Assembly: GCA_024137785.1 (NCBI GenBank)
Contig: JAHRHZ010000069.1
Location: 8,350,093-8,414,092 of the forward strand
DNA length: 64,000 nt
Reading direction: 5' to 3'
DNA from: Ginglymostoma cirratum
Taxonomy: Eukaryota
Each line of letters opens with the position of its first letter. The stretch's first letter is position 1. Made by a program: the position numbers and the translations under genes. Under the pieces are notes generated by a model that saw nothing but the letters and a program-made list of their open reading frames with translations, was not told the DNA's origin and ran no database searches. Positions 28,525 to 61,035 of the stretch are shown piece after piece.

Positions 28525-29260
28525 GTCCATAGGACCATAAGAAACAAGAACAGGAGTAGGCTGTTCAGTATCCTGCGCCTGCTTAACCTTTTGATAGGAT
28601 CAAAACTGATCCGACATTCTTTACATCCACTTTCATGCCATTTCCCCATTACTATCAATAGGGGAAAATCGAGAAAGGATTTATCTCAGTCTTAAATGTA
28701 CACAAGGACTCTACACCCACAGCTGTTCGTGGCAAGGAGTTCCAAAGATTCATAACCCTCTCAGAGAAACTATTCTGCTTTATCTCAGTCTTCAATTGGT
28801 GCCCCTTCATTCTGAGGCTATGCCCTCTGGTCTTAGACATTCTCATGGAGAGAGATCCTCTCAGCATTCACCCTGTCAAGCCCCTTAAGAATCCTAAATG
28901 CTTCAACGAGAGCACCTCTCATTCTTATAAATTCCAATGAGTACACACCGAATCGGTTTAATCCTTTGCTCATAAGACAATCCCTCCATACTGAGGATCA
29001 TCCCAGTAAACCTTCTCTGAACTGTCGCCAGTGAAATAGTAACCTTCCTTAAATAAGGGGGCCAAACCTCTTCACAGTATTCCAGATGTGGTCTCACAGG
29101 CACCTTGTAGAGTTGCATTAAGACTTCCCTATTATTATACTCCACCACCTTTGAAATAAGGGCCAATGCTCCTTTAGCTTTCCTGATGACTTGTTGCACC
29201 CACGGGCCATCTTTCTGTTTCATGCACAAGTACAAAATATCTGTTGTGTCTTTTGTGTTC
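28525..29260 (-). mobile_element. CR1 LINE 3' fragment
   Basis: Minus-strand ORFs LYKVPVRPHLEYC...VQRRFT and KTRGHSLRMKG...RVMNLWNSLP, plus CR1 tail. Confidence 0.9.
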
Positions 29261-29269
29261 AGCATCATT

Positions 29270-29590
29270 GGCAACTCTTTGAATAGTACTGCAGATCACA
29301 TCCAAATGCAACAAGATCTGGAGAGCAATCAGGTTTGGGTTGATCAATGACAAAAATAGAAATTGCTGGAAGAGCTCAGCAGGTCTGGCATCATCGATGG
29401 AGAGTGTGTGCAGGTCGAGTGACCCTTCCTCAGAATTGGGTTGCTCAGTGGCCAATAATATTCTTGCCACATAATTATCTGGCAATGGCTACCTCCAATG
29501 GGATTACCACTACACCACTATTAATATTTTGAAACTACTGATGACCAGAAATCCTACTGGACTAACCACATAAGCAGTACGGTTACAAAC
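29270..29590 (+). mobile_element. LINE RT fragment carrying a nested family-B Penelope-like single arm (29350-29435)
   Basis: atgcaacaagatctggagagcaatcaggtttggg (MQQDL..IQ.W) continues after the insert. The insert is flanked by a 15-bp TSD TTGGGTTGATCAATG / TTGGGTTGCTCAGTG (29335-29349, 29436-29450). Confidence 0.7.
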
Positions 29591-32500: not shown

Positions 32501-32682
32501 TTCCAGAACTTTCCTTGTTACAAGATCCCACAGTAATTCACTTCATATTATGCTCCATACTCAGTGGCGGGGGGGGGAAATGCGGGGGAACGTCTTGAAT
32601 TCACCATAAAACTATTTTTGCTTTTCCTAATTCTCCATACTGTTTAATTGGGAGTTGTTAAAACACCCCATGATTACAATTT

Positions 32683-33236
32683 AAGATAACAAGGTGTAGA
32701 GCTGGATGAACACAGCAGGCCAAGCAGCATCAGAGGAGCAGGAANNNNNNNNNNNNNNNNNNNNNNNNNNNNNNNNNNNNNNNNNNNNNNNNNNNNNNNN
32801 NNNNNNNNNNNNNNNNNNNNNNNNNNNNNNNNNNNNNNNNNNNNNNNNNNNNNNNNNNNNNNNNNNNNNNNNNNNNNNNNNNNNNNNNNNNNNNNNNNNN
32901 NNNNNNNNNNNNNNNNNNNNNNNNNNNNNNNNNNNNNNNNNNNNNNNNNNNNNNNNNNNNNNNNNNNNNNNNNNNNNNNNNNNNNNNNNNNNNNNNNNNN
33001 NNNNNNNNNNNNNNNNNNNNNNNNNNNNNNNNNNNNNNNNNNNNNNNNNNNNNNNNNNNNNNNNNNNNNNNNNNNNNNNNNNNNNNNNNNNNNNNNNNNN
33101 NNNNNNNNNNNNNNNNNNNNNNNNNNNNNNNNNNNNNNNNNNNNTTCCTGCTCCTCTGATGCTGCTTGGCCTGCTGTGTTCATCCAGCTCCACACCTTGT
33201 TATCTCAGATTCTCCAGCATCGGCAGTTCCTACTAT
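32683..33236. mobile_element. Penelope-like palindromic mini-element, family A, centre replaced by a 400-N gap (32745-33144)
   Basis: Near-perfect inverted arms either side of the gap. 15-bp TSD CCATGATTACAATTT / CCATGATTAAGATTT (32668-32682, 33237-33251). Confidence 0.85.
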
Positions 33237-33677
33237 CCATGATTAAGATTTTATATATTAGTCACTCACCATAGATTTCGTTGCATATTTCCTACACTGT
33301 TCTTTTCCACTTTTTGGAGCTCTATAGTGTTCCCCCACCCCCCACATAGGCACGACAGGTTTTTTGTTCAAAATAAACCCATACCCCACCTCTATTTTGC
33401 TACTAGTTTTTCTTTAAATCATCATGTTGTTATCCAAAACTAAAATTCATCTCCAGCTCCCTAAGGCAAGCAAACAAACAAACCTCCAGGAGCTCAGTAA
33501 TCAATAATTACATTCACATACCAATGGAGTTAGGCTCCTTCAGCTGTACAATCTCTTTCGTATGCAAGACTGAAGATTTCAGGTCAATTCTGCTCTTTGG
33601 CCTTTCTCAAGCTCTTCCACGATCAGCTAACACTTTGCACGATTGAAACTTGAACCAGGAAAGTGATACAAGAGCAA

Positions 33678-40125: not shown

Positions 40126-42899
40126 CTACTTTAATAAAGGCTGTGTTTACAGTGAATGGCACCACAAGGCAAAGCAACCAGCGTGCACATGGAGGAACAC
40201 ACACAACACCACCACCTGGCTATGCAGTGGCATGCTGCCAAGAAAGTTGCATGCGCACCTGTCAAGCACAACTGTGCAGTTTTGCTGCAACCTATATGCA
40301 TTTTCTCCACCCCATCACATGGTAGCACGCATGCTGCTAAAAGAAATAAAGTGGATCCAATATAATCAATTGATTCCATCATTTACTGAATCAGCTTTGC
40401 TTGTCACCTTTTCAAGTGAAGCACCATGGAAGAGACCACTGCACGCAAAAGATGGCATTAGCAGAACACAAGCTGACAAATGCCGAATCCCATTGGCATC
40501 AGCTGAGACCACCAGCCTCATCGGTGGCCATTTTGGTTTTGAGTAATTATTTTACTAAAATTACAAACTTATTATTTCCCACATAAATCTGGCATAGAAT
40601 TGACAGTATAAAAGAGTTGCTAGACAAATTGTTGATGCAAATCCAAAACATAAGAAACGGTCGTAGGCTATTCAACCCCTCAAGCCCATAGCATCAATTT
40701 GAGCATAGCTGTTCTGCAGCTTAATTTTTCCATTGTCCCATACCCTTTGATACAACTGGAAAGAAAGAGAACTAATGCATATAGCACTGAGGCAACTCCT
40801 TCCCTCAGGTGCTGTGAATTTAACTTTATTCATTGCCTAAACAGTCTATGACAGCTGCAGCAACGATGTATGCATTTGGCACAGCAGCAGGATGTTTGGG
40901 AATGGGAGTTTTAACAACCCCAAGTGGAACATCAGCCAAGCAAGCAATTTACCGGCAGCTTTTGCGAACGCTGCAAAGCAATGAAATATATTAGTAAATG
41001 CTACAATCTAAGGGCTTTTTTCTTTTCAAAATCTGTTTTTCAAGCTATGACAGTCCATTTGCCTTACATCTCAAGGTTCCTGCGTTGTTTAAGCTCACAT
41101 TAAGAGACACTTGCAGGCTTTGTCCATTATCAAAAAGCAAATTTGGCCAATCATTTTCTGGGTCATCTGCTGCCACCCTGAAAAGTTAATTTTTTTTCCT
41201 TCAAAAATTGAATAAAAACCATCTGTTATGAAAACCACAGCGAAAAACTTTTGACCTGCCATTCCTTTATGTGGGACATTTAACGTTACTGAAACCCATC
41301 ACTATTCTTTAAACTCAACCCAAACTGAATTAGTTTCGAGTCCATCCACGTGGCAGTCAGAAACGACAGAGCGGAAGTATTCAGATTACACTGCAAACAC
41401 CCGACTCCAGCCCCATGCTTGTGATCTCAGATTCTCCAGCATCTGCAGTACCTTTTATCTCTGTAGAGAGCAATGCTGAAATACCTGTAAGCGCTACAAT
41501 GGCATCGAGGCTGAGCTTCTCGCTGCAAAATGCATGTTGGGGTTATACAAGACTAGTTGATTCAAACTCCAAGTTGCTATTGACACCACACACGCGCGCA
41601 GATACACACATACACTGAAATATTCATGCATTTTATTTTTAATCCAAACCAGCTAGCCTGCAACAGATGGAATTCTGGTTGGAAACAAATGGAACGATGA
41701 CAAATGGATTGGTAATTCTCTTTCACAAAATGAGTGGGGGAAATTAAACTGTCGATTTATGCTCTGGTTAGCAATTCGAAAGCCAGAATGGTTAAGTGGC
41801 GGTTGGAAAAAAACATAACCTCGTTAGAACACAAGGCAACACAATGAAGAATTTAATTTGGAACGTAAATCATGAGATAACTACATATAGCAAGCCAGAA
41901 CAAAAAAAAAAATTCCCTCACGATTGGGATTTTTGTTTGATCCAAATCCATGTATAACCCGGCAGAGGATCCTAGCGACATAGGACGTTAAGCAGAAAAC
42001 GCAACAGGGAAGAGGAGGCCTGTTAAAATCCAAAACCCTCTACTAATCTCTACTGGGGAGAATCAGACTGTGAAGACTGTCACTGTGGAGATTGATTGCG
42101 GAAGATATGGAAAAAGGAGGATACAAAAATCAGCAAGCATTAGAAAAGAAAAAGGGAAACGAAGCATTTTTTTTAAATGAATGCATTCATCAGTCATCCA
42201 GCAAAAAAAAAAATCGTTTTATGACTAAGTTTACAGCTGAATGAAATTCTCTAGGGACCAGCTAAGATTGCATGGTTCAGATGTGATCGAGAGTTAATGC
42301 GAACCTCACCTTGGGTATCATCAGTGCTTTAATTCCCATTGGGGACACAGAACATACCCAGAGAACAGCACCTCACTGCGACACTCAGCAATTAACCCGT
42401 TCAGTACCAGCCAAACGTTGTTGGCATTGAATAGCGAATAACTTCAGTGTGTGCAGCTGAAGAGGCATGGAAGCAATTGGTGCAGACATGACGGTATTAT
42501 GGACTCATGCCGCGTATTGACCAAACTATCCTAGATTTACTTTTTATAAAGGTCTGAAAATCGTTCATTATATCAAGATAGCGATTGATTTGAATTTGGC
42601 AGACAGGCAGATCTGGAGCCTAAAAGCAACGTGAAATTCAGAATCACAGCAGCGTTACAGCTGTTCGGCCCATCGTGCCGAGACCAGCTCATTAAAATGA
42701 TCACGACCTCGTGCCAGTCTCCTGCCTGCCCCATACCGTCCCCCACTATTTGGACCCAAATAATCATCCAATTCCCTCTTCAAAATGTTTAAAATAACGA
42801 GTGTACACCAACGATACACATGGATCAAAGTTTTCTGGAACAGGGCAGCGACACTAGATTTTTCTTCTCCCCCCCCCCCCCCCCCCAAATGCAATTTAC

Positions 42900-45800
42900 A
42901 TCAATGCAGGTCAGTGAGCTGCCTGTTTAAAAAGGAGTAGCGATCTGCATCAGTGTGCTTGATGACATTACTCCTAACTCTACCCTATGTTGCCGGCGCT
43001 CAGTGTGATACAGCTATCCCAGCCTCCCTGCGGGGAATATGGCGAAGCTGTATGTGACACGTGCTTTTTCTTTAAAAAAAAACACAGAGCCCCGGCTCAA
43101 AATTAACCCTGAGAAATTTGGGGGCGGGGATGGAATGGAGGAGAATCCTTCGTTATCCATTTTAACGTGGTGGCGACAGTCCAGAGAGGTCTATCCCCTC
43201 TCTGCATCGGAGGCTTCCGGCTGGCTGAGAACCATCTCGTGTTCGTGATATTTCCCCCATTCCGCTCACAACCCTACCGTGGAAGTAATTTAATGAGAGA
43301 TTATGTCATGCCTCTGTGATTACACGTCTCTTGGACAAGCAAACAAAAAGGGCAAAGAAGCCTACAGATTTTAAAAACAGCGTTTCCAAAAATATCAAGC
43401 CTCCCTCTTCCACGTCCTAGCTGGGGGGGGGGGGGGGGGGGGGCTGTGATCAGAGTTTCATGTTGCTTCATGGCCCCACGCACACACATCTTGATCTGTC
43501 TACGGTGGAACCAATACGCAGCCCAAGTCGCGGGTTATTATTTCTGGCGGTGTTATAATCTCCATTTGGATTCCCTATTCAACGTATGGGCTCTGTTTCT
43601 ATAAATATTGTCATGCACTATTCAACAGATCTCCAGTGCCCATCTAGATCGTGCACCGCTCCCTCACCGGCATTGGGAGGCAGCTCGCAATTAGACCATT
43701 TCGCTGGGCACAGTGTACATTCCTGCTGCTCACTTCACTCGTGAGGAATTCGGCCACTCAGTACAGATGCTGGCCCAGCTCACTGTGCGACAAATCGCCG
43801 ATGAAACCGTCAGCTTGTGGATGCTGTGTCTAAATTTTAAAGCGCAGCTCTTCTCTCCGAGAGTGTAGCCGCAAAGGTTAATAATATCACTTAGCCAGTG
43901 CTCCCGCATACAATTTACCCCTCTCTCTCTTTCTCGGTGCGTCCCCTTTCTTAAAAAAAAAAGGGAGGCAAGTGAATACAGCTGGACACGAGGCGTTCTT
44001 GAGATATGTAAACTCTCTGCCTTCAAGTCAGAGCCAATGTTTTGATTACTTGTTTCTAATCATTTTCGAACACGTTCCTTTATGCACGCACATTACATAA
44101 CGGAAAGCTCTCACAGTTTACAATAGAAAACGGGTACAAATTTGTTTTTAGTTACCAGTAACGCTGCTAAAACAATTAACGAGAAATTGGAGGGGGGTTG
44201 GCGGTGGAAGAGAGATTTAAATTATATAGCGAGTGCGAGGATTATGGATGAACTCCCAAGAAAGAGGCCAGCAGCGTTAAATCTTAATCTGGGTTTCTGC
44301 TTCAGAGCTCACACATTGAGGAGTGCAACCCTGTCAGCAGTCTCAACGTACAGTAAAGCAGGAAGGAGCCCAAGTGTGTGTCTGGGTCTGAGAGAGAGAC
44401 ATGGCTACACGCTCGAATCCCCCTTCCTAAAGGGGGTTGAGAAAGGGCGTTCCTCCTACCTTGAAGAGTCTCAGGATCTTGGCCACCATGATAGACACGG
44501 AGCTGGACGAAGCCCCAATAACGCCAACTATCCTCTCGGGCTTGACAAAGATCGGGGGTTCCCCATTAGTGCACCTCACATCCGTGGTGTCCTTCTGAAT
44601 GTGAGTCTGAACAAAAGTGAGGGACTGCTCTAGAGCGTAGATGTCCTTCGAGCAGGTATCTAGGATGTGAGCCCCCAGCGTAATGTTGGGCAGGAGGTCC
44701 GGATCGCTGTTGATCTGGTCCAGGGCGTAAAGCATCGCCTCCAAGCGATGGATTCCCTTCTCCTTCTTGAGGTCCCCGCAGGGTGTCCCCTTAGGCCCTC
44801 TGGCGTGAACTGGGAAAAGGCCACCCAAGGTGAGCTCTCCTTCGATCCTGATAGAGTGAGTGGTGTAAGGCTCCTGAGCGGTACTCAGCCCGTAACACAC
44901 CGCGACCCAGAACAATCTCCACAAGGCTATCCCTGAGTAGACCATCGTTCACTTCCCTGCTGCTGCTGCTCCCTCTCTCTCGGAGTTGCAATTCCAACTT
45001 CAGTTCTTAAAAAAGGCACCTCTTTTTAAAATGTTGAACACTAAAACCAGCAGTCCTAGCAGGCAGGGCAACCGACTGGGGGAACGGCATACTCCTGGCT
45101 TTGCCTTGAGAAGATGACATAGGTTTCGGAGATCCTCACCACCTCAGTTGCTCGGTTTCCAGTGAGGAGCCCATTGAAAGTTGGACAGTTGTTGAAATAA
45201 CGTGATCCATTCTTAGCTTGGGAAGGAGAGAGGAGGGGAAAGACCCGCCTCCCCCCACCCCTCTCCCCCCCCACCGCCACCAACCCACGCCAAGGCGCCT
45301 GTCACCCACAGCGGTGGGTTTGCATGGAATTTACACCCAGCCCCCTCCTTCCTCTTTTTCTTCCTCCCTCCCCTCTCTCCCTTCCCCGCTTATGGAGCGT
45401 GTGCGATCGGCGTGATTCTGATTACAAGCCGCTCTCTGCAGTAGCCCTCCATCCAGTTCCCCGGTCGCTTCGATTCTACCAGTGAAAAGACTCTCGCACA
45501 ACAGAGTTGGGGGGGGGGGGGGGGGGGGAGGAAAAAGCAAGAGAGAAAAAAACCCACAAAGAATTCAAGTGGCTTCAGCTGAAAGCAATGACGCCGTGTA
45601 CCAACTCCACCCAGTATCACTGCAGTTAGCAAAGCAACAATTCAAGGCGCTTGAGCGTTACGAACCCTGCTCCCGGGGAAAATAGACACCATTAAACCAC
45701 TGATACAGAATAACCTTTCAACAGCCTCCCGAGACATTAGAGGCTCCCCTTGCCCGAAACAGCCCCCTCCCTCCCCAGAACTGTCAGACAAGCATCGTTA

Positions 45801-46560
45801 AGTTTAATTTCAAACACTGCAGGATTACAAAACGTCTTGGTTGCTCGCGCCCCTACCTTACGGCTGTGCATCAGATTGCATTTTGCTTTTTCTTTGGGAG
45901 TTGGGGGGTGGGTGGAAATGTGGTATGCTGGAAGAACGTGTGAGAACAACAGTCCCTCACCTTCATACGGATTGCTTTGGTCTGGAGACTCTCTGGATCG
46001 TGACTGAGGAGTTTCTTTTTTGGACGTCTGTCGAATATTCTTCAAAAACCACCTGCTAACCGAGCACAGCAAGTCATGTGGGATCTCTACAGATTCTTTA
46101 CTGGAGAGTAAACGAGCCGTGTGTGTGTTTTTTTTTTAAGTGTAAATGTCAGAATGACATCCCATCCTCCATCATTTTGTGACAACTTTTTATTAATATG
46201 AAGGACGCTTACATTCGATTCAAACCTCATTCCCGCTCATACACACCCCTATCCCAAACCCATGGCGTGCCCATCTTTCACGTTTTGGTGTTTTCTTTGG
46301 ATCTTCTTTAATTCAATCTCCCTTCCATTCAAACTATTAGCAAATTCTCTCCTGGTCCAGCGCCCGGTTACCGTCTACAGTTTGGGAAGCAGAGATCCCG
46401 ACTGATAAACTTTTAAAAGAGATAAACAAGACAGACTACAGCAGGTAGGGAACATCAGCACAAAGCTACTCCCAAACGACGAGAAACTGATCAACGCTTC
46501 CATGGTGAATTACTCAGTGCCATCCGACTTGAAGGAAACACCACGCAAAAATCAGCAGCT
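42900..46560 (-). promoter_or_regulatory. CpG/GC-enriched promoter, 5' leader and first-intron region of the GRM gene
   Basis: CpG density is visibly higher than in the CpG-depleted flanks. GC-rich tracts at 45240-45530, G/C homopolymers, few repeats. Edges approximate; TSS not determinable. Confidence 0.6.
44460..44945 (-). CDS. GRM6: First coding exon (162 codons: signal peptide + N-terminal Venus-flytrap LB1) of a group III metabotropic glutamate receptor; GRM6 favoured, GRM7 not excluded
   Basis: Translation [13 protein letters not shown]...[22 protein letters not shown]...[34 protein letters not shown]...EQSLTFVQ...RCTNGEPP...[22 protein letters not shown] is clearly a group III mGluR. 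Kozak is strong (ACGATGG). A phase-0 donor AAG|GTAGGA at 44460/44459 sits at the conserved ILRLFx exon end. Paralog call is inference: it shares GP, INSDP, QKD and RCTNGEPP with GRM7 and fish GRM6 but lacks the GRM7-typical EN, PPV, PEK and FQ residues. Confidence 0.93.
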
Positions 46561-47200
46561 CTCCAACAAAGCTTTGTCTGATTGGATTTCCCTGTAGCCA
46601 ATTAACAGTATCTCCTCTTTGTCAATTAAAATGATTACTTCGGCAATCAGGAACATTTGAACCTATCAACCGTAAATGGCCACTTTTCAAAGGGTTCCAC
46701 TTACCAAGTGAAATAACCAATACAAAATATCATTTTGAATACGAGATGACGGCTTTGTTCCTGTAACTTTTCTCCATCTCTGCCTTCATGCTGATAAACT
46801 GTTTTCCCCATTTTTACACTGGTCTGTTGAAAGCTAGTCGCAGTGGTGGATTCTGCCGTGTTTCCTGTATCCCTGTTGTATCTCGCTTTTATCTCAAAGT
46901 TCTGTTAAACATCTTTCAAAAATTAACTTGAAATAGAGCTTTTTTAATACGCCCACGGAATTCCGTTTAACTAGAAGTAAGACGTAAGAAATTGGGGAGG
47001 ATTAAAAGATAGTATTTGCAAAGAAGCCTTACAAATCTAAGACGTAGACATTTAAAATACTCACAGTTTCAAGCAACATAATTTTAGTAACTGGAAATTT
47101 TACTTCGCTGTCAAATAAACCAAACTGTATTGCTCGTACCGGAATAGGGTGTCGCATGACCCGAATTCAAGCCACACATGCCTGGACTGTGTCTATTATC

Positions 47201-47343
47201 TGAGGTCTGAGGAAGGGTCACTGGACCCGAAACGTTAACCCACTTTTCTCCTTCACAGATACTGCCAGACCTGCTGAGCTTTTTCCAGTAACTTTGTTTT
47301 TGTTCCTGATTTACAGCATCCGCAGTTCTTTTGGTTTTTATTT
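47201..47343 (+). mobile_element. Family-B Penelope-like mini-element with intact hammerhead core
   Basis: TSD GTCTATTATC at 47191-47200 and 47347-47356 (13 bp with 1 mismatch); body matches family B. Confidence 0.85.
47203..47240 (+). ncRNA. Minimal type I hammerhead ribozyme motif
   Basis: CUGAGGA (47207-47213), extra A, stem II GGGUC-ACUG-GACCC, GAAA, palindromic ACGU stem III, GUU cleavage triplet. Stem I is weak in this copy; activity untested. Confidence 0.65.
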
Positions 47344-47435
47344 TGCGTCTATTATCACGTCCAGCTGGTTACTTGAAAACACAACAGTTAATAATTAGGA
47401 ACAAACAACTTACCAGTACCTTCACTGATAGCATT

Positions 47436-47822
47436 AAAAACAGAAATTGCTGAAAAAGCTCGTCAGGTCTGGCAGCGTCCGTGGAGAGAAATCAAGTTAA
47501 CGTTTCGGGTTTTACTTTATTAATAGGTTTGGTGGGAGGGTTTAATTGATATTTTACATGTTATATTACCTGATAGTTGAATAGTTTCTGTAACTCTTAA
47601 GTTAGAGATGGTAGCTTTCAATTCTCCCCTAGTAACAAATTTAGAGTCATTTATGTGTCTGCCTCTCTTATTACAAGTCTGGTCACACTTTCCAGACAAA
47701 TTTAAAGTGTCACGGACGCGTTCTGATATATTGCAAGGCAGTTGGAATTTGAAGAGTGGACGCGAAAACGTTAGCTCCGCTGTTCCTTGACAGATGCTGC
47801 CAGACCTGCTGCGGTTTTCCAA
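47436..47822. mobile_element. Two opposed family-B-related arm fragments (47436-47512 and 47765-47822)
   Basis: aaaacagaaattgctg..tcaggtctggcagc..gttaacgtttcggg and aaacgttagctc..cagatgctgccagacctgctg. Confidence 0.7.
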
Positions 47823-48462
47823 CCTCGTTAGCCTATAGTCGGTGACATTACCACATACTACAAGAAGTCTGGAGGTGGGGCTTAAGCCGCGTCTCTTAGC
47901 TCAGAGGTAGGGACACTATCGCCCCCATCGGCGAAACAATAAATTACACGCCGATGTGTGTTGTGTTCTCAAACGCGATTGTCCCGTACTCTTGGTAATT
48001 CAGAGCTTGGAATGACCGTACAGATGTTCAGATTGCAAATGCTTGTTGGTAAAAAGAGACTGAAAGACCAGAAGCTGCAGCTTTTACGATTTGAGCTTAA
48101 TAGAAATGATGTTAGTGACACTCCATAAAATCGCTTGGAGAACGTAAAACGTTAAGATCAATAGGAATTAATTGGATTTCGCGCTAGTGAGAAATTCCCT
48201 TTCAATGTGGTGTCCACATATTCCCCGGTCTCATCAGGAGTGCGAATCTCAGTTGAAATGGTTTGAATTGCGTTCACAAGATCATGAATAATACATCTAT
48301 ATGTTCAGGAGCTGAACTACTGTTTCTTACAATCGTACAAAAATAAGGATGAAATTAGATGAGTTTGTTATTCTCCATGGTCTTTAGAGTGTGAATTTCT
48401 GTTCCCTAAAAGCCACTGGTTGCTGGATCCTTAAATTGATTCCAGGCCTAGTAGAACAGATG

Positions 48463-49221
48463 AGATAACAAGGCGTTGAGCTGGATGAACACAGCAGGCC
48501 AAGCAGCATCAGAGGAGCAGGAAAGCTGACGTTTCTGGTCTGAAACCTCCTTCAGAAGAAGGGTCCAGACCCAAAACATCAGCGTTCCTGCTCCTCTGAT
48601 GCTGCTTGGCCTGCTGTGTTCATCCAGCTCTNNNNNNNNNNNNNNNNNNNNNNNNNNNNNNNNNNNNNNNNNNNNNNNNNNNNNNNNNNNNNNNNNNNNN
48701 NNNNNNNNNNNNNNNNNNNNNNNNNNNNNNNNNNNNNNNNNNNNNNNNNNNNNNNNNNNNNNNNNNNNNNNNNNNNNNNNNNNNNNNNNNNNNNNNNNNN
48801 NNNNNNNNNNNNNNNNNNNNNNNNNNNNNNNNNNNNNNNNNNNNNNNNNNNNNNNNNNNNNNNNNNNNNNNNNNNNNNNNNNNNNNNNNNNNNNNNNNNN
48901 NNNNNNNNNNNNNNNNNNNNNNNNNNNNNNNNNNNNNNNNNNNNNNNNNNNNNNNNNNNNNNNNNNNNNNNNNNNNNNNNNNNNNNNNNNNNNNNNNNNN
49001 NNNNNNNNNNNNNNNNNNNNNNNNNNNNNNNACACAGCAGGCCAAGCAGCATCAGAGGAGCAGGAAAGCTGACGTTTCTGGTCTGAAACCTCCTTCAGAA
49101 GAAGGGTCCAGACCCAAAACATCAGCGTTCCTGCTCCTCTGATGCTGCTTGGCCTGCTGTGTTCATCCAGCTCTACACCTTGTTATCTCAGATTCTCCAG
49201 CATCTGCAGTTCCTACTATCT
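48463..49221. mobile_element. Family-A Penelope-like palindrome, duplicated across a 400-N gap (48632-49031), inserted into a CR1 tail
   Basis: Inverted arms with central tcagaagaagggtccagacccaaaacatc (decayed hammerhead). 15-bp TSD CTAGTAGAAYAGATG (48448-48462, 49222-49236). The CR1 tail continues to about 49350. Confidence 0.85.
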
Positions 49222-50809
49222 CTAGTAGAATAGATGTTTGTTGGACACCAGAGTCTAGGGTTATGATGACAGGATTGGAGATCATAGCCATATCAGGCAT
49301 GATCTAATTGAATGGTGGAGCAGACTTGATGGGCTGAATGGTCGACTCCTAAGCCTGATATAAAAATAAGGCATATATTGAAAAATATACCTACAGCTAA
49401 GGGATGGTCTACTTAACTCATGTTCCCAAACCTTCATCTGTTTATCAATGTACCATTTAATGATAATGATCAGTAGATTTAATTCAAGTTCTCATCTAAC
49501 TATTTTTCCCATGAGCAATTGTTGGGATTTGAAAGTGCTTTGGTTTAGCAATTAAATGCAATGTTGTTCTATCAGGGAAGAACAGAATGCTTCCACCCAT
49601 TAACTCCAGGGAGAACTTTTTTAAAGTGTGTTCATTGTAACTTGTAAATCTCCTTTTATATTTAATGTATTCCATTGTTCTGTGTATGCTAGATCATGGT
49701 TATACCTCAGCTGCTTTGGGTGGGAAAGAGTTAACACAGGCCAGGGCTTATATAATTCTTTTCTAAATGTAAATTATGCTTGTCTTTTTGGTGTTCATGT
49801 CTCTTGCAGAAGTCAAATTATTGCTCGTTGATGGAAGATACATTTTCCTTAGAAATTTGCTCACCAGGTCCCTAATACGGTACATCAATGAAATGGCGTC
49901 ATTCTTGTCAGTCTAAGTTGCTTGATATCTTTTTGTGTGCATCTGACAAGCAAAAGCAATACAAACCTACCCTTTTGGTTATCATCAATTTACGGAGGCA
50001 ATACTGCCATATTTTATTCAGTAGCTCAATAATGATACCAGGATGCCCTCATGTGGATAAAAACAATCAACTCAGTTTAACTTTCCACGAACAAGTTGTA
50101 TAAACTAATATAAAAAGCATACGCTGGTTGGAAGTCTGAAATAAAAACAGAAATGCTGATAACTCATTGACATGAAACAATAATTTTATTTCACTCTCCA
50201 CAGATTTGCAGAGTATTTCCAACATTTTTTTTTTAAAATTAACCCTATAAACTAAGTTGCACACAAAGATTACCCAAAAGTCCTCTGCAGTCTCTGTTAT
50301 TTTCATAGATTTACAAAACAGACTTTGGTTAGGTAAGCATTGCAAAAGATATGGCACTGAGATAAAGATCAGCCATAAATCTTTAAAGCATAGTGAAGGT
50401 GCAGAATGATTCCTGTTAGTATATTGAGAGTTTTACAGTATTTTGTTTTCCTTAGAGGTTGCAAATGTAAGACAAAAGCATTCAGATGATGCTGTGACGT
50501 AAGTGAAATAATACCAATTAAAAATCATATGATAACGTTCTTCAAATGAGATAATTGCCCAAGTTGCCAAGTAGTATGATAATTATCCACACGTTAAATA
50601 AGGAGTGATCATTTATGCAGTCGCAGGCCCAAACTTTGCTGAGAGCAAGAGCAGGTTGTTAATGTCAGCTGACACTGAAAGGCTAATGATTGTGTTGCAA
50701 TCATTGCAACTTTACTGAGCAATATTCAGTAGTTTATTGTCAGGAAATAAACTGCCCAGTTTTAATTTAATGATTTGTGGTTTTTAAAAAAAAGAGTATG
50801 ATCTGGGTT

Positions 50810-51220: not shown

Positions 51221-51742
51221 TGGATGCAACAGTGCTTTACAATATGCAAAGGCCTTGATGTATAAACTGTTAGGGATTAACACTTTTATTTGTGGAGTAC
51301 TTTGAAATAGTTCAATGTTTTGTCCTTAAAAGGTAGATATTTATTCTAAATTTTGTAAAGCTTTATGTAAATTAATATTGATCCAACACATGTATTACAT
51401 TTGTTAAAAAAGAACATAGAACAGTACAGCACTGTACAGGCCCTACGGCCCACGAGGTTGTGCCGACCTATTATCCTACTAAGATCAATCTACCCCGCAT
51501 ACCTTACATTATACTATCATCCATGTTCTACACCATTTGCATGGTGGCAGTGAACTGAGAGCAGGTAGCAACACATACACTGTCACAAATGTGCAGAGAA
51601 AGAAGATTAATCTGTCTTTAAAATTGACATAAAGGAGCCTTTAAAATGGTTCTCAAAAGTTAGAAGACTTAAATTCCACTGCAGCCAAAGCAGACAACCA
51701 GACTGAATTGACCGCAAAAATGTCATTAGATAATTCAAGGCA

Positions 51743-51958
51743 CAAAAACAGAAATTGCTGGAAAAACTCAGCAGGTCTGGCAGCATCTGTGAACAGAAAT
51801 CAGAACTAACATTTCAGGTCTGATGAAGGGTCACTGGACCTAAAATGTTAGCTCTGATTTCTCTCCACAAATGCTGCCAGACCTGCTGAGTTTTTTCGAC
51901 AATTTTTGCTTTTGTTTCTGGATTCCAGCATCCACAGTTCTTTCAGCCTTTTTTTGAG
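51743..51958. mobile_element. Family-B Penelope-like palindromic mini-element
   Basis: Perfect 12-bp TSD TAATTCAAGGCA (51731-51742, 51959-51970). Inverted arms with centre CTGATGA-A-GGGTC-ACTG-GACCT-AAAAT-GTT. Confidence 0.9.
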
Positions 51959-52064
51959 TAATTCAAGGCATCAGGTCTGGTCATTGAACTCTCAAAAGGT
52001 GTGAAGGCTAATTGGTCAATAGGAGAGTGTAGGGACATCAGGAGGCTTTCCAGCATAACTGACT

Positions 52065-59994: not shown

Positions 59995-61035
59995 CTACGT
60001 AAGTCTGTTCAAAACTAAAGAACTGATCATCGACTTCAGAAAGAAGGGAGGAGAATATGCCACATTTACATCAATGGAACTGAGGTTGAGATAGTGATGA
60101 GCATTAAGTTCCTCGGAGTGACAATAACCGACCTGTCCTGGACTTCCCATGTAAATGCAACAGTCAAGAAGGCACAACAAAGCCTCTTCTTCCTCAGGCA
60201 GCTCAGGAAATTTGACATGTCCATAAGGTCCCTCAACAAATTCTACAGATGCACCATTGAAAGCATACTGTCTGGGTGCATAACAGCCTGATATGGCAAC
60301 TGCTCTGACCAGAACTGTAAGAAACTACAGAAGGTGGTGTGCACAGCCCAGACCATCATGGAAGCCAACCTTCCATCCATGGACTCCATTTACATGTCTC
60401 GCTGCAGCAGAAAGGAGGCCAACATCGTCAAAGACGATCCCATCGCACCCTGGTAATGACCTCCTATAACCTCTTTCATCCTCTTCCATCAGGCAGAAGA
60501 TACAGAATAGAGAAGAGAATATCTTGTATTGTCACTTGTACTACAATACGAAAGTATAGGAGTACAGTGAAAAGTTTCTACAATGGCTGCCTTTTAAAGG
60601 CGCCATCTTAATTACAAGTACCTAGGTACAAATCTTACAGATTTTAAAAAAAAAGTGGTCTTACACAAAGAGGATTAAAGGAAAGCATAAACATTACTCA
60701 GGGGTAGATTAAATATAACATGTGGCACCAAGCCCAAGTCCGGCAACTATCCTGCATCTCCAGTCCGCTCCTCACTGGCACTCAACAGCAACCAGGTAAG
60801 TCACGCTGTACCGGGATTCATTCCTCCTGAACACATGCACAAGCAGGTTCAGCAACAACTTCTTTCCGGCCGTAATCAGACTGTTGAATGGACTCTAGCT
60901 TCAAATAATGTAACCTCCAATGTAACCTGTATGCTTCTAAGTCTTTTTGATCTGTACATCCTTTGCTTGCCAAGATCTGCTTGTACAGCTCATAAACAAA
61001 GCTTTTCACTGTATTTTGTTACACGTAACGATAAA
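59995..61035 (+). mobile_element. Rex1/Babar-type LINE 3' fragment with an inverted insert at about 60506-60815
   Basis: KTKELIIDFRK; FLGVTITDLSWTSHVNATVKKAQQSLFFLRQLRKF; FYRCTIESILSGCITA; LPSGRRYR; resumes with ttctttccggccgtaatcagactgttgaa. Confidence 0.85.

Follow-up and report, generated by a model that had tools for sequence, protein, structure and literature searches.

Upstream of a GRM7-like gene of the shark Ginglymostoma cirratum, on the strand opposite to the gene, lies a motif that looks like a minimal hammerhead ribozyme. Is it a working ribozyme that cuts transcripts leaving the promoter region, or one more relic of a mobile element? We analysed it within the whole 64-kb stretch of DNA available around it (hereafter, the window). 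The answer that we favour, with a probability of roughly 85%, is that the motif at 47.2 kb belongs to a solitary copy, flanked by a target-site duplication (TSD), of an abundant minimal-hammerhead repeat, likely the pseudo-LTR (pLTR) of a Penelope-like element, and that the copy itself is in all likelihood inert. Coordinates of all features are collected in Table 1.

Table 1. Features of the 47.2-kb locus and its surroundings (positions in the window)
Feature	Position	Strand	Basis or detail
First coding exon region, GRM7-like gene	44430..44945	-	ANF_receptor; PDB matches
Left target-site duplication	47188..47200	+	13 nt
Exact 7-nt duplicate of 47206-47212, forming the non-family 5' strand of stem I	47199..47205	+	sequence
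143-bp insertion, hammerhead-headed high-copy short repeat, likely Penelope pLTR-derived	47201..47343	+	TSD boundaries and family homology
Stem I, 5' strand AGGU (putative family letters AGUU)	47203..47206	+	
Core C3-A9 (CUGAGGA) and extra A between 9 and 10.1	47207..47214	+	CUGAGGA 47207-47213, A47214
Stem II, 5 bp, 4-nt loop, opening with G10.1-C11.1 (G47215-C47228)	47215..47228	+	
G12-A15.1, palindromic ACGU and GUU triplet	47229..47236	+	sequence; architecture as described in PMC4209133
Stem I, 3' strand AACC (family: U at 47240)	47237..47240	+	
Right target-site duplication	47344..47356	+	13 nt, 1 mismatch vs left
Separate inverted family copy, 5'-truncated, lacking the CUGANGA box	47436..47510	-	
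Third family copy, decayed, same strand	47757..47818	+	core 9/11, stem II 2/5

A complete core with a broken stem I

All 11 scored core letters are present in the 47.2-kb copy. Stem II is a perfect 5-bp helix (GGGUC at 47215-47219, loop ACUG, GACCC at 47224-47228), followed by GAAA at 47229-47232 and CGUU at 47233-47236, so that the ACGU palindrome occupies 47232-47235, and both CpGs are kept (47228/9 and 47233/4). These features, read directly from the sequence, agree with the first-pass annotation, which had listed all core nucleotides, the perfect stem II and the two CpGs. By analogy with described minimal hammerheads, helix III would form from ACGU only in a dimer, and the cut is predicted at 47236/47237. 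A search with the minimal-core pattern found a single match in the window, the expected number being 0.01, and 1 of 100 shuffled sequences matched.

Stem I is a different matter. In the register that allows a cut at GUU it consists of U-A, G.A, G-C and A.C, that is, two of four pairs, and the helix I of about 4-5 bp typical of minimal hammerheads of Penelope-like elements is missing from this copy. Calling the motif intact, as had been done, was therefore an overstatement, the more so as the core collapses in the predicted fold (see below). The accompanying remark that stem I (GGU/AACC) is imperfect was correct as to the imperfection, but GGU and ACC pair only one base out of register. A scan with Rfam covariance models, which had been proposed as a check, did not back the motif either: no hammerhead model matched at the gathering score or at E-values up to 10. 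Five sub-threshold matches (E up to 10) were unrelated and were dismissed.

A merely accidental resemblance to a hammerhead is practically refuted, the least credible of the readings considered here: the lack of an Rfam hammerhead match and the non-significant folding z-scores (-0.9 to 0.0) are in its favour, but it has to contend with the excess of the core pattern over expectation, with the presence of all three features that lie outside the search descriptor given in PMC4209133, and with the restoration of a 4-bp stem I by the family letters.

The insertion and its repeat family

The motif stands at the head of a 143-bp insertion (47201-47343, plus strand) with a 13-nt direct repeat on both sides that contains one mismatch (47188-47200 and 47344-47356), in accordance with the earlier description of a TSD-flanked mini-element. 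No comparable repeat was found among 300 random boxes drawn (boxes with N were skipped, and slightly fewer were scored). In four sequencing runs, homology to the family has a sharp start at 47206 and runs to 47340-47343. The 7-nt duplicate immediately upstream of the family start likely reflects slippage at the 5' junction, to which two substitutions would be equivalent in letters.

To place the insertion among its relatives, we mapped contigs from 4 of 24 listed public runs on 46800-47700 at an 85% likeness threshold. In all four runs contigs pile up on the repeat copies, with 9,512, 26,438, 43,514 and 6,639 family contigs per run, and the summed contig depth, which is not a copy number, is 1e5-1e6 over 47203-47357 vs 0-4 on the unique flank. 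The insertion is a member of a very abundant short repeat family. Loose contig ends before 47206 finish in CAGT in four of four runs (as the majority; overall agreement is 0.36-0.61, low because flanks differ between copies), and position 47240 is T in 97-99% of the depth in each of the four. The family stem I is thus predicted to be AGUU/AACU with four Watson-Crick pairs, and the family form would have the helix I that the 47.2-kb copy lacks.

Among the joints listed, opposite-strand joints of the family occur at 47206; at least one contig of run X1 and at least four of run X12, thus two of the four runs, have head-to-tail joints from 47342 to 47206. No joint among those listed for the four runs represents the empty site; the unique flank is mostly uncovered. 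Its stretch 46800-46910 is matched by one X1 contig with 0 differences over 111 nt, the rest of the unique flank being uncovered; this match could be either a conserved element or partial cover.

Within the window, blastn with the 143-bp insertion finds nine pieces at seven sites, and a related second family is also present. An inverted-plus-direct pair at 51.74-51.96 kb (51731-51970) carries an exact 12-bp TSD, and at 27.76-27.93 kb there is another pair arranged in the same way. For the second family, TSDs of 15 and 16 bp flank two insertions. In the TSD test of ten sites, 4 of 10 gave only an 8-nt repeat or none at the settings used (27.8 and 33.7 kb being weak), and the sites at 47.5, 47.8 and 41.4 kb gave no repeat. 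The 51731-51970 pair has lost all its CpGs to decay. Both gaps of 400 N interrupt second-family insertions of the inverted-plus-direct type (48448-49236 and 32678-33237); sequence flanking the gap at 48632-49031 is duplicated on either side of it, likely an assembly artefact.

Parentage of the family

Family copies display the anatomy typical of Penelope insertions, namely 5' truncation, inverted-plus-direct repeats and TSDs, and this anatomy matches what PMC8557442, PMC3846280 and PMC8969392 describe for such insertions. The window has 274 N-free frames with a length of at least 60 aa, and a Pfam scan of the longest 115 gave 0 matches to RT or GIY-YIG domains, the only matches being the GRM exon and one ALKBH8_N. 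As no Penelope ORF was found, parentage is inferred from anatomy: the family likely represents a Penelope-like retroelement's 3' end (pseudo-LTR). In neither metagenomes nor viral contigs did the core-pattern scan find a family copy (0 in each). Single body-motif matches in metagenomes and in genomes were rejected as 22-nt chance matches in GC-rich DNA. The ALKBH8_N match is at 60019-60288 (plus strand), and the minus-strand frames 1852-2280 and 28906-29295 have what we take to be a resemblance to LINE ORF2 tails; all three are probably debris of non-LTR retrotransposons.

A possible, if doubtful, alternative is that the family is non-autonomous and resembles a retrozyme or SINE, having an RNA cycle of its own (tandem units, circular RNA), the 47.2-kb locus being a monomer offspring. 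Such an element would still depend on Penelope proteins, so that this account overlaps with the preferred one and differs only in the source RNA. The sharp boundaries shared at 47206 and 47340-47343 and the few head-to-tail joints are in line with it, as is the report of retrozymes in one chondrichthyan and of monomer derivatives in many species (10.64898/2026.07.22.740005). However, the 47.2-kb locus is not tandem, the head-to-tail joints come from 5 contigs in two of the four runs (among joints listed), and 5'-truncated Penelope insertions explain the inverted-plus-direct pairs equally well.

Comparison with known hammerheads

Minimal hammerheads were described in pLTRs of metazoan Penelope-like elements, mostly as single dispersed motifs forming large families (PMC4209133, Cervera and De la Pena 2014), with occurrences in fishes, the coelacanth (about 4,000) and Xenopus (about 9,000). 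The shark motif resembles them, as characterized in that paper, in having a type I core devoid of its own helix III, a single nucleotide separating position 9 from 10.1, the G10.1-C11.1 pair, the palindrome at 15.2-16.2 and a short helix I. The extra A, G10.1-C11.1 and palindrome also support the first-pass assignment to Penelope-type minimal type I hammerheads, as far as PMC4209133 defines them. It differs in that helix I is broken in the 47.2-kb copy and no linked Penelope ORF was found among the 115 window frames scanned; also, helix II has 5 bp here, unlike the 7-8 bp given for the Schistosoma families. Overall, the copy has three of the four testable RNA features of the class; the fourth, helix I, is absent from the copy and predicted for the family.

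Non-LTR retrozymes of animals, as presented in PMC7229834 and 10.64898/2026.07.22.740005, share with our repeat the short non-coding unit, the type I hammerhead and the relation to pLTRs. According to the latter source, their monomer derivatives are common and they are reported in one chondrichthyan. Unlike these elements, which are built of tandem units with a hammerhead in each, the 47.2-kb locus consists of one TSD-flanked unit, and the window contains one full core. The domesticated hammerheads of amniotes (in RECK, CTCL and DTNB; PMC6155905) are likewise located near host genes. They are described there as intronic and conserved across species, whereas the 47.2-kb motif belongs to a repeat with very many copies and lies upstream of, and antisense to, its gene.

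We found no paper specific to shark hammerheads and nothing on hammerhead ribozymes in retroelements of cartilaginous fishes in our literature search, though the species table of 10.64898/2026.07.22.740005 may name the family. The one supplement file of PMC4209133 that was searched has no mention of shark or Callorhinchus. A literature match for Penelope hammerhead and shark was discarded, since "shark" there denotes only a ribozyme shape.

Predicted folding and dimer partners

In the best predicted fold of the 47.2-kb copy stem I is one base out of register and the core is buried. The canonical stem I has a pair probability of 0.0 in all five contexts folded. Stem II has a predicted probability of 0.96-0.98 in short contexts, which falls to 0.17 in 47100-47430 and to 0.0 when the inverted copy is included; the drop to 0.17 is due to upstream sequence, the inverted copy being absent from that context. 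The changes in stem I create five pairs in the shifted register, in which a 3-bp stem I reaches a probability of 0.04-0.10 in short contexts. A cut at UUA in that register was rejected by reasoning, because it leaves a 1-bp helix III.

When the two stem I positions were set to the family letters in silico, the best fold of the 45-nt monomer changed to an open hammerhead shape. The active homodimer was modelled at -6.7 kcal/mol for the native sequence vs -17.5 kcal/mol with the two family letters, a gain of about 11; alternative dimers fold lower in both cases (-29.4 and -32.0 kcal/mol). Since the models leave out tertiary contacts of the core, as well as chaperones, and since the rival dimers have lower energy, only the difference between -6.7 and -17.5 kcal/mol is informative.

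A hammerhead of this kind would also need a partner. The 47.2-kb copy is the only one of the nine pieces in the window with 11/11 core letters and 5/5 stem II pairs, and the window contains no same-strand partner with a full core, the nearest same-strand piece being the decayed copy at 47757-47818, which is not a competent dimer partner. A heterodimer of the 47.2-kb core with the GUU site of the 47.8-kb copy was rejected as well, its stem I duplex reaching no more than -2.6 kcal/mol and carrying a mismatch adjacent to the core. The inverted copy at 47436-47510, about 260 nt downstream of the hammerhead core, includes 15 nt perfectly complementary to 47225-47239, and this duplex is predicted with a probability of 0.95-1.0 in plus-strand RNA reaching 47510. 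In any transcript crossing both, 47225-47301 and 47436-47510 are predicted to form a long inverted duplex (-93.7 kcal/mol) that could be a target of editing or of small-RNA processing.

The neighbouring gene

The exon opened by the ATG at 44945 (minus strand) has mGluR7 as its best PDB match (E-value = 4.5e-74), followed by mGluR8 and mGluR4. The distance from this ATG to the hammerhead at 47203 is 2258 bp, which confirms the earlier placement 2.3 kb upstream of the GRM start codon. Being antisense to the GRM7-like gene, the hammerhead could act only on plus-strand RNA. The exon (44466-44945, minus strand) departs from human mGluR7 at several positions of an otherwise matching stretch: R to H and, in the ILDTCS region, RDT to KDI, then AL to TH, within ASGSS G to S, and N to K near the exon end; these differences could be due to relaxed constraint, lineage change or assembly error.

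CpG retention and the question of selection

The observed/expected CpG ratio is 0.66 for 42.0-48.3 kb vs 0.28 outside. A broad CpG-retaining domain spans 41000-48500 (0.5-0.85 per kb), reaching about 3.5 kb upstream of the start codon; beyond 46 kb its G+C content is merely 39-43%. CpG sites of the family are kept in 4/4 cases in two clearly aligned local copies vs 3/11 elsewhere (p = 0.026), and in 6/6 if a third, ambiguously aligned local copy is included (p = 0.007); with pairs merged into insertion events, the comparison becomes 2/2 vs 0/4 (p = 0.067). Among the run contigs, a set biased towards copies resembling the 47.2-kb one, the ACGU CpG is changed in 10-24% of the depth per position, the stem II CpG is unlisted at a 10% cut-off, and keeping both CpGs is not rare within the family. 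The proposal that this copy escaped CpG decay near the promoter thus holds for the CpG-retaining domain itself, but not for any singularity of the copy. Moreover, the catalytically dead inverted neighbour also keeps its CpGs, which argues for a regional mutation effect rather than for selection on the ribozyme.

Compared with the other copies in the window, the 47.2-kb copy differs at 0/28 columns of the core and stem II vs 15/65 columns of the body (p = 0.003), a distribution that by itself would suggest a selected core. This contrast is inflated, as the alignment missed a gap and mixed subfamilies, and the site was also picked for looking intact. The p-value becomes 0.015-0.033 when 9-11 events are counted; with the run-derived majority as the reference (5 substitutions listed and one inferred insertion over 107 nt), it is 0.24-0.31. 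Our reading is that the copy is probably young, about 95% like its own subfamily, rather than selected.

Does the copy cut?

That a working, co-opted ribozyme cuts plus-strand transcripts diverging from the GRM7-like promoter, through a family partner in trans or a shifted stem I, is very unlikely in our estimation. The features that would commend it are the full core and stem II, unique among the nine copies, the window-only contrast of 0/28 vs 15/65, the divergent orientation within a CpG-rich domain, and the small probability of the shifted 3-bp stem I in short contexts. Against these stand the zero probability of the canonical stem I in every context folded, a shifted register in which helix III shrinks to 1 bp and the palindromic dimer is lost, a core excess that loses significance against the run-derived majority, and the sequestration of the core by the inverted copy. 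Besides, even intact dimers cleave poorly in the experiments of PMC4209133. An elaborated version, in which a young insertion with a selected core would cut divergent promoter RNA in trans with family RNAs, and the inverted copy would serve as a length-dependent off-switch, is unlikelier still.

What is published on related motifs gives a sense of the activity to be expected. Minimal hammerheads require a second copy for helix III, and PMC4209133 reports no detectable cleavage for a single one and only low activity for dimers; in 10.64898/2026.07.22.740005, 8 of 9 tested Xenopus dimer elements are reported to give no product. Dimer cleavage was also studied by Lunse et al., as covered by the review PMC6765202 (see also PMC3138052). 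For the 47.2-kb copy, the loss of half of stem I, the lack of a partner and the antisense neighbour together lead to the prediction that it does not cut. The cleavage of divergent transcripts suggested by the first-pass annotation accordingly finds no support, given two of four stem I pairs, no full-core partner on the same strand and a core sequestered by the inverted copy.

The scenario that we prefer, an inert copy of a Penelope-derived repeat, would run as follows. In source transcripts, tandem units would pair their ACGU palindromes to form helix III, and each unit would cut at its GUU. The Penelope RT/GIY-YIG protein, acting in trans, would copy the short RNA starting at the hammerhead, and the copied piece would have been inserted at 47.2 kb with a 13-bp duplication. 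Slippage at the 5' junction and later substitutions would then have broken stem I, while low methylation in the CpG-rich domain at the GRM7-like promoter and the youth of the copy may have kept the CpGs without selection.

Significance

The 47.2-kb copy is likely an ordinary and probably inert example of the class of minimal hammerheads published in 2014. On this most likely reading it is of little significance, being one more copy in a lineage in which the class is sparsely documented in print. Should the copy cut divergent GRM7 transcripts after all, a ribozyme would have been co-opted at a promoter, and such cases are rare. The family, in which copies are very numerous and tandem units occur occasionally, could serve as a test bed for the question whether Penelope minimal hammerheads cut in vivo, a question for which the 47.2-kb copy itself is a poor representative.
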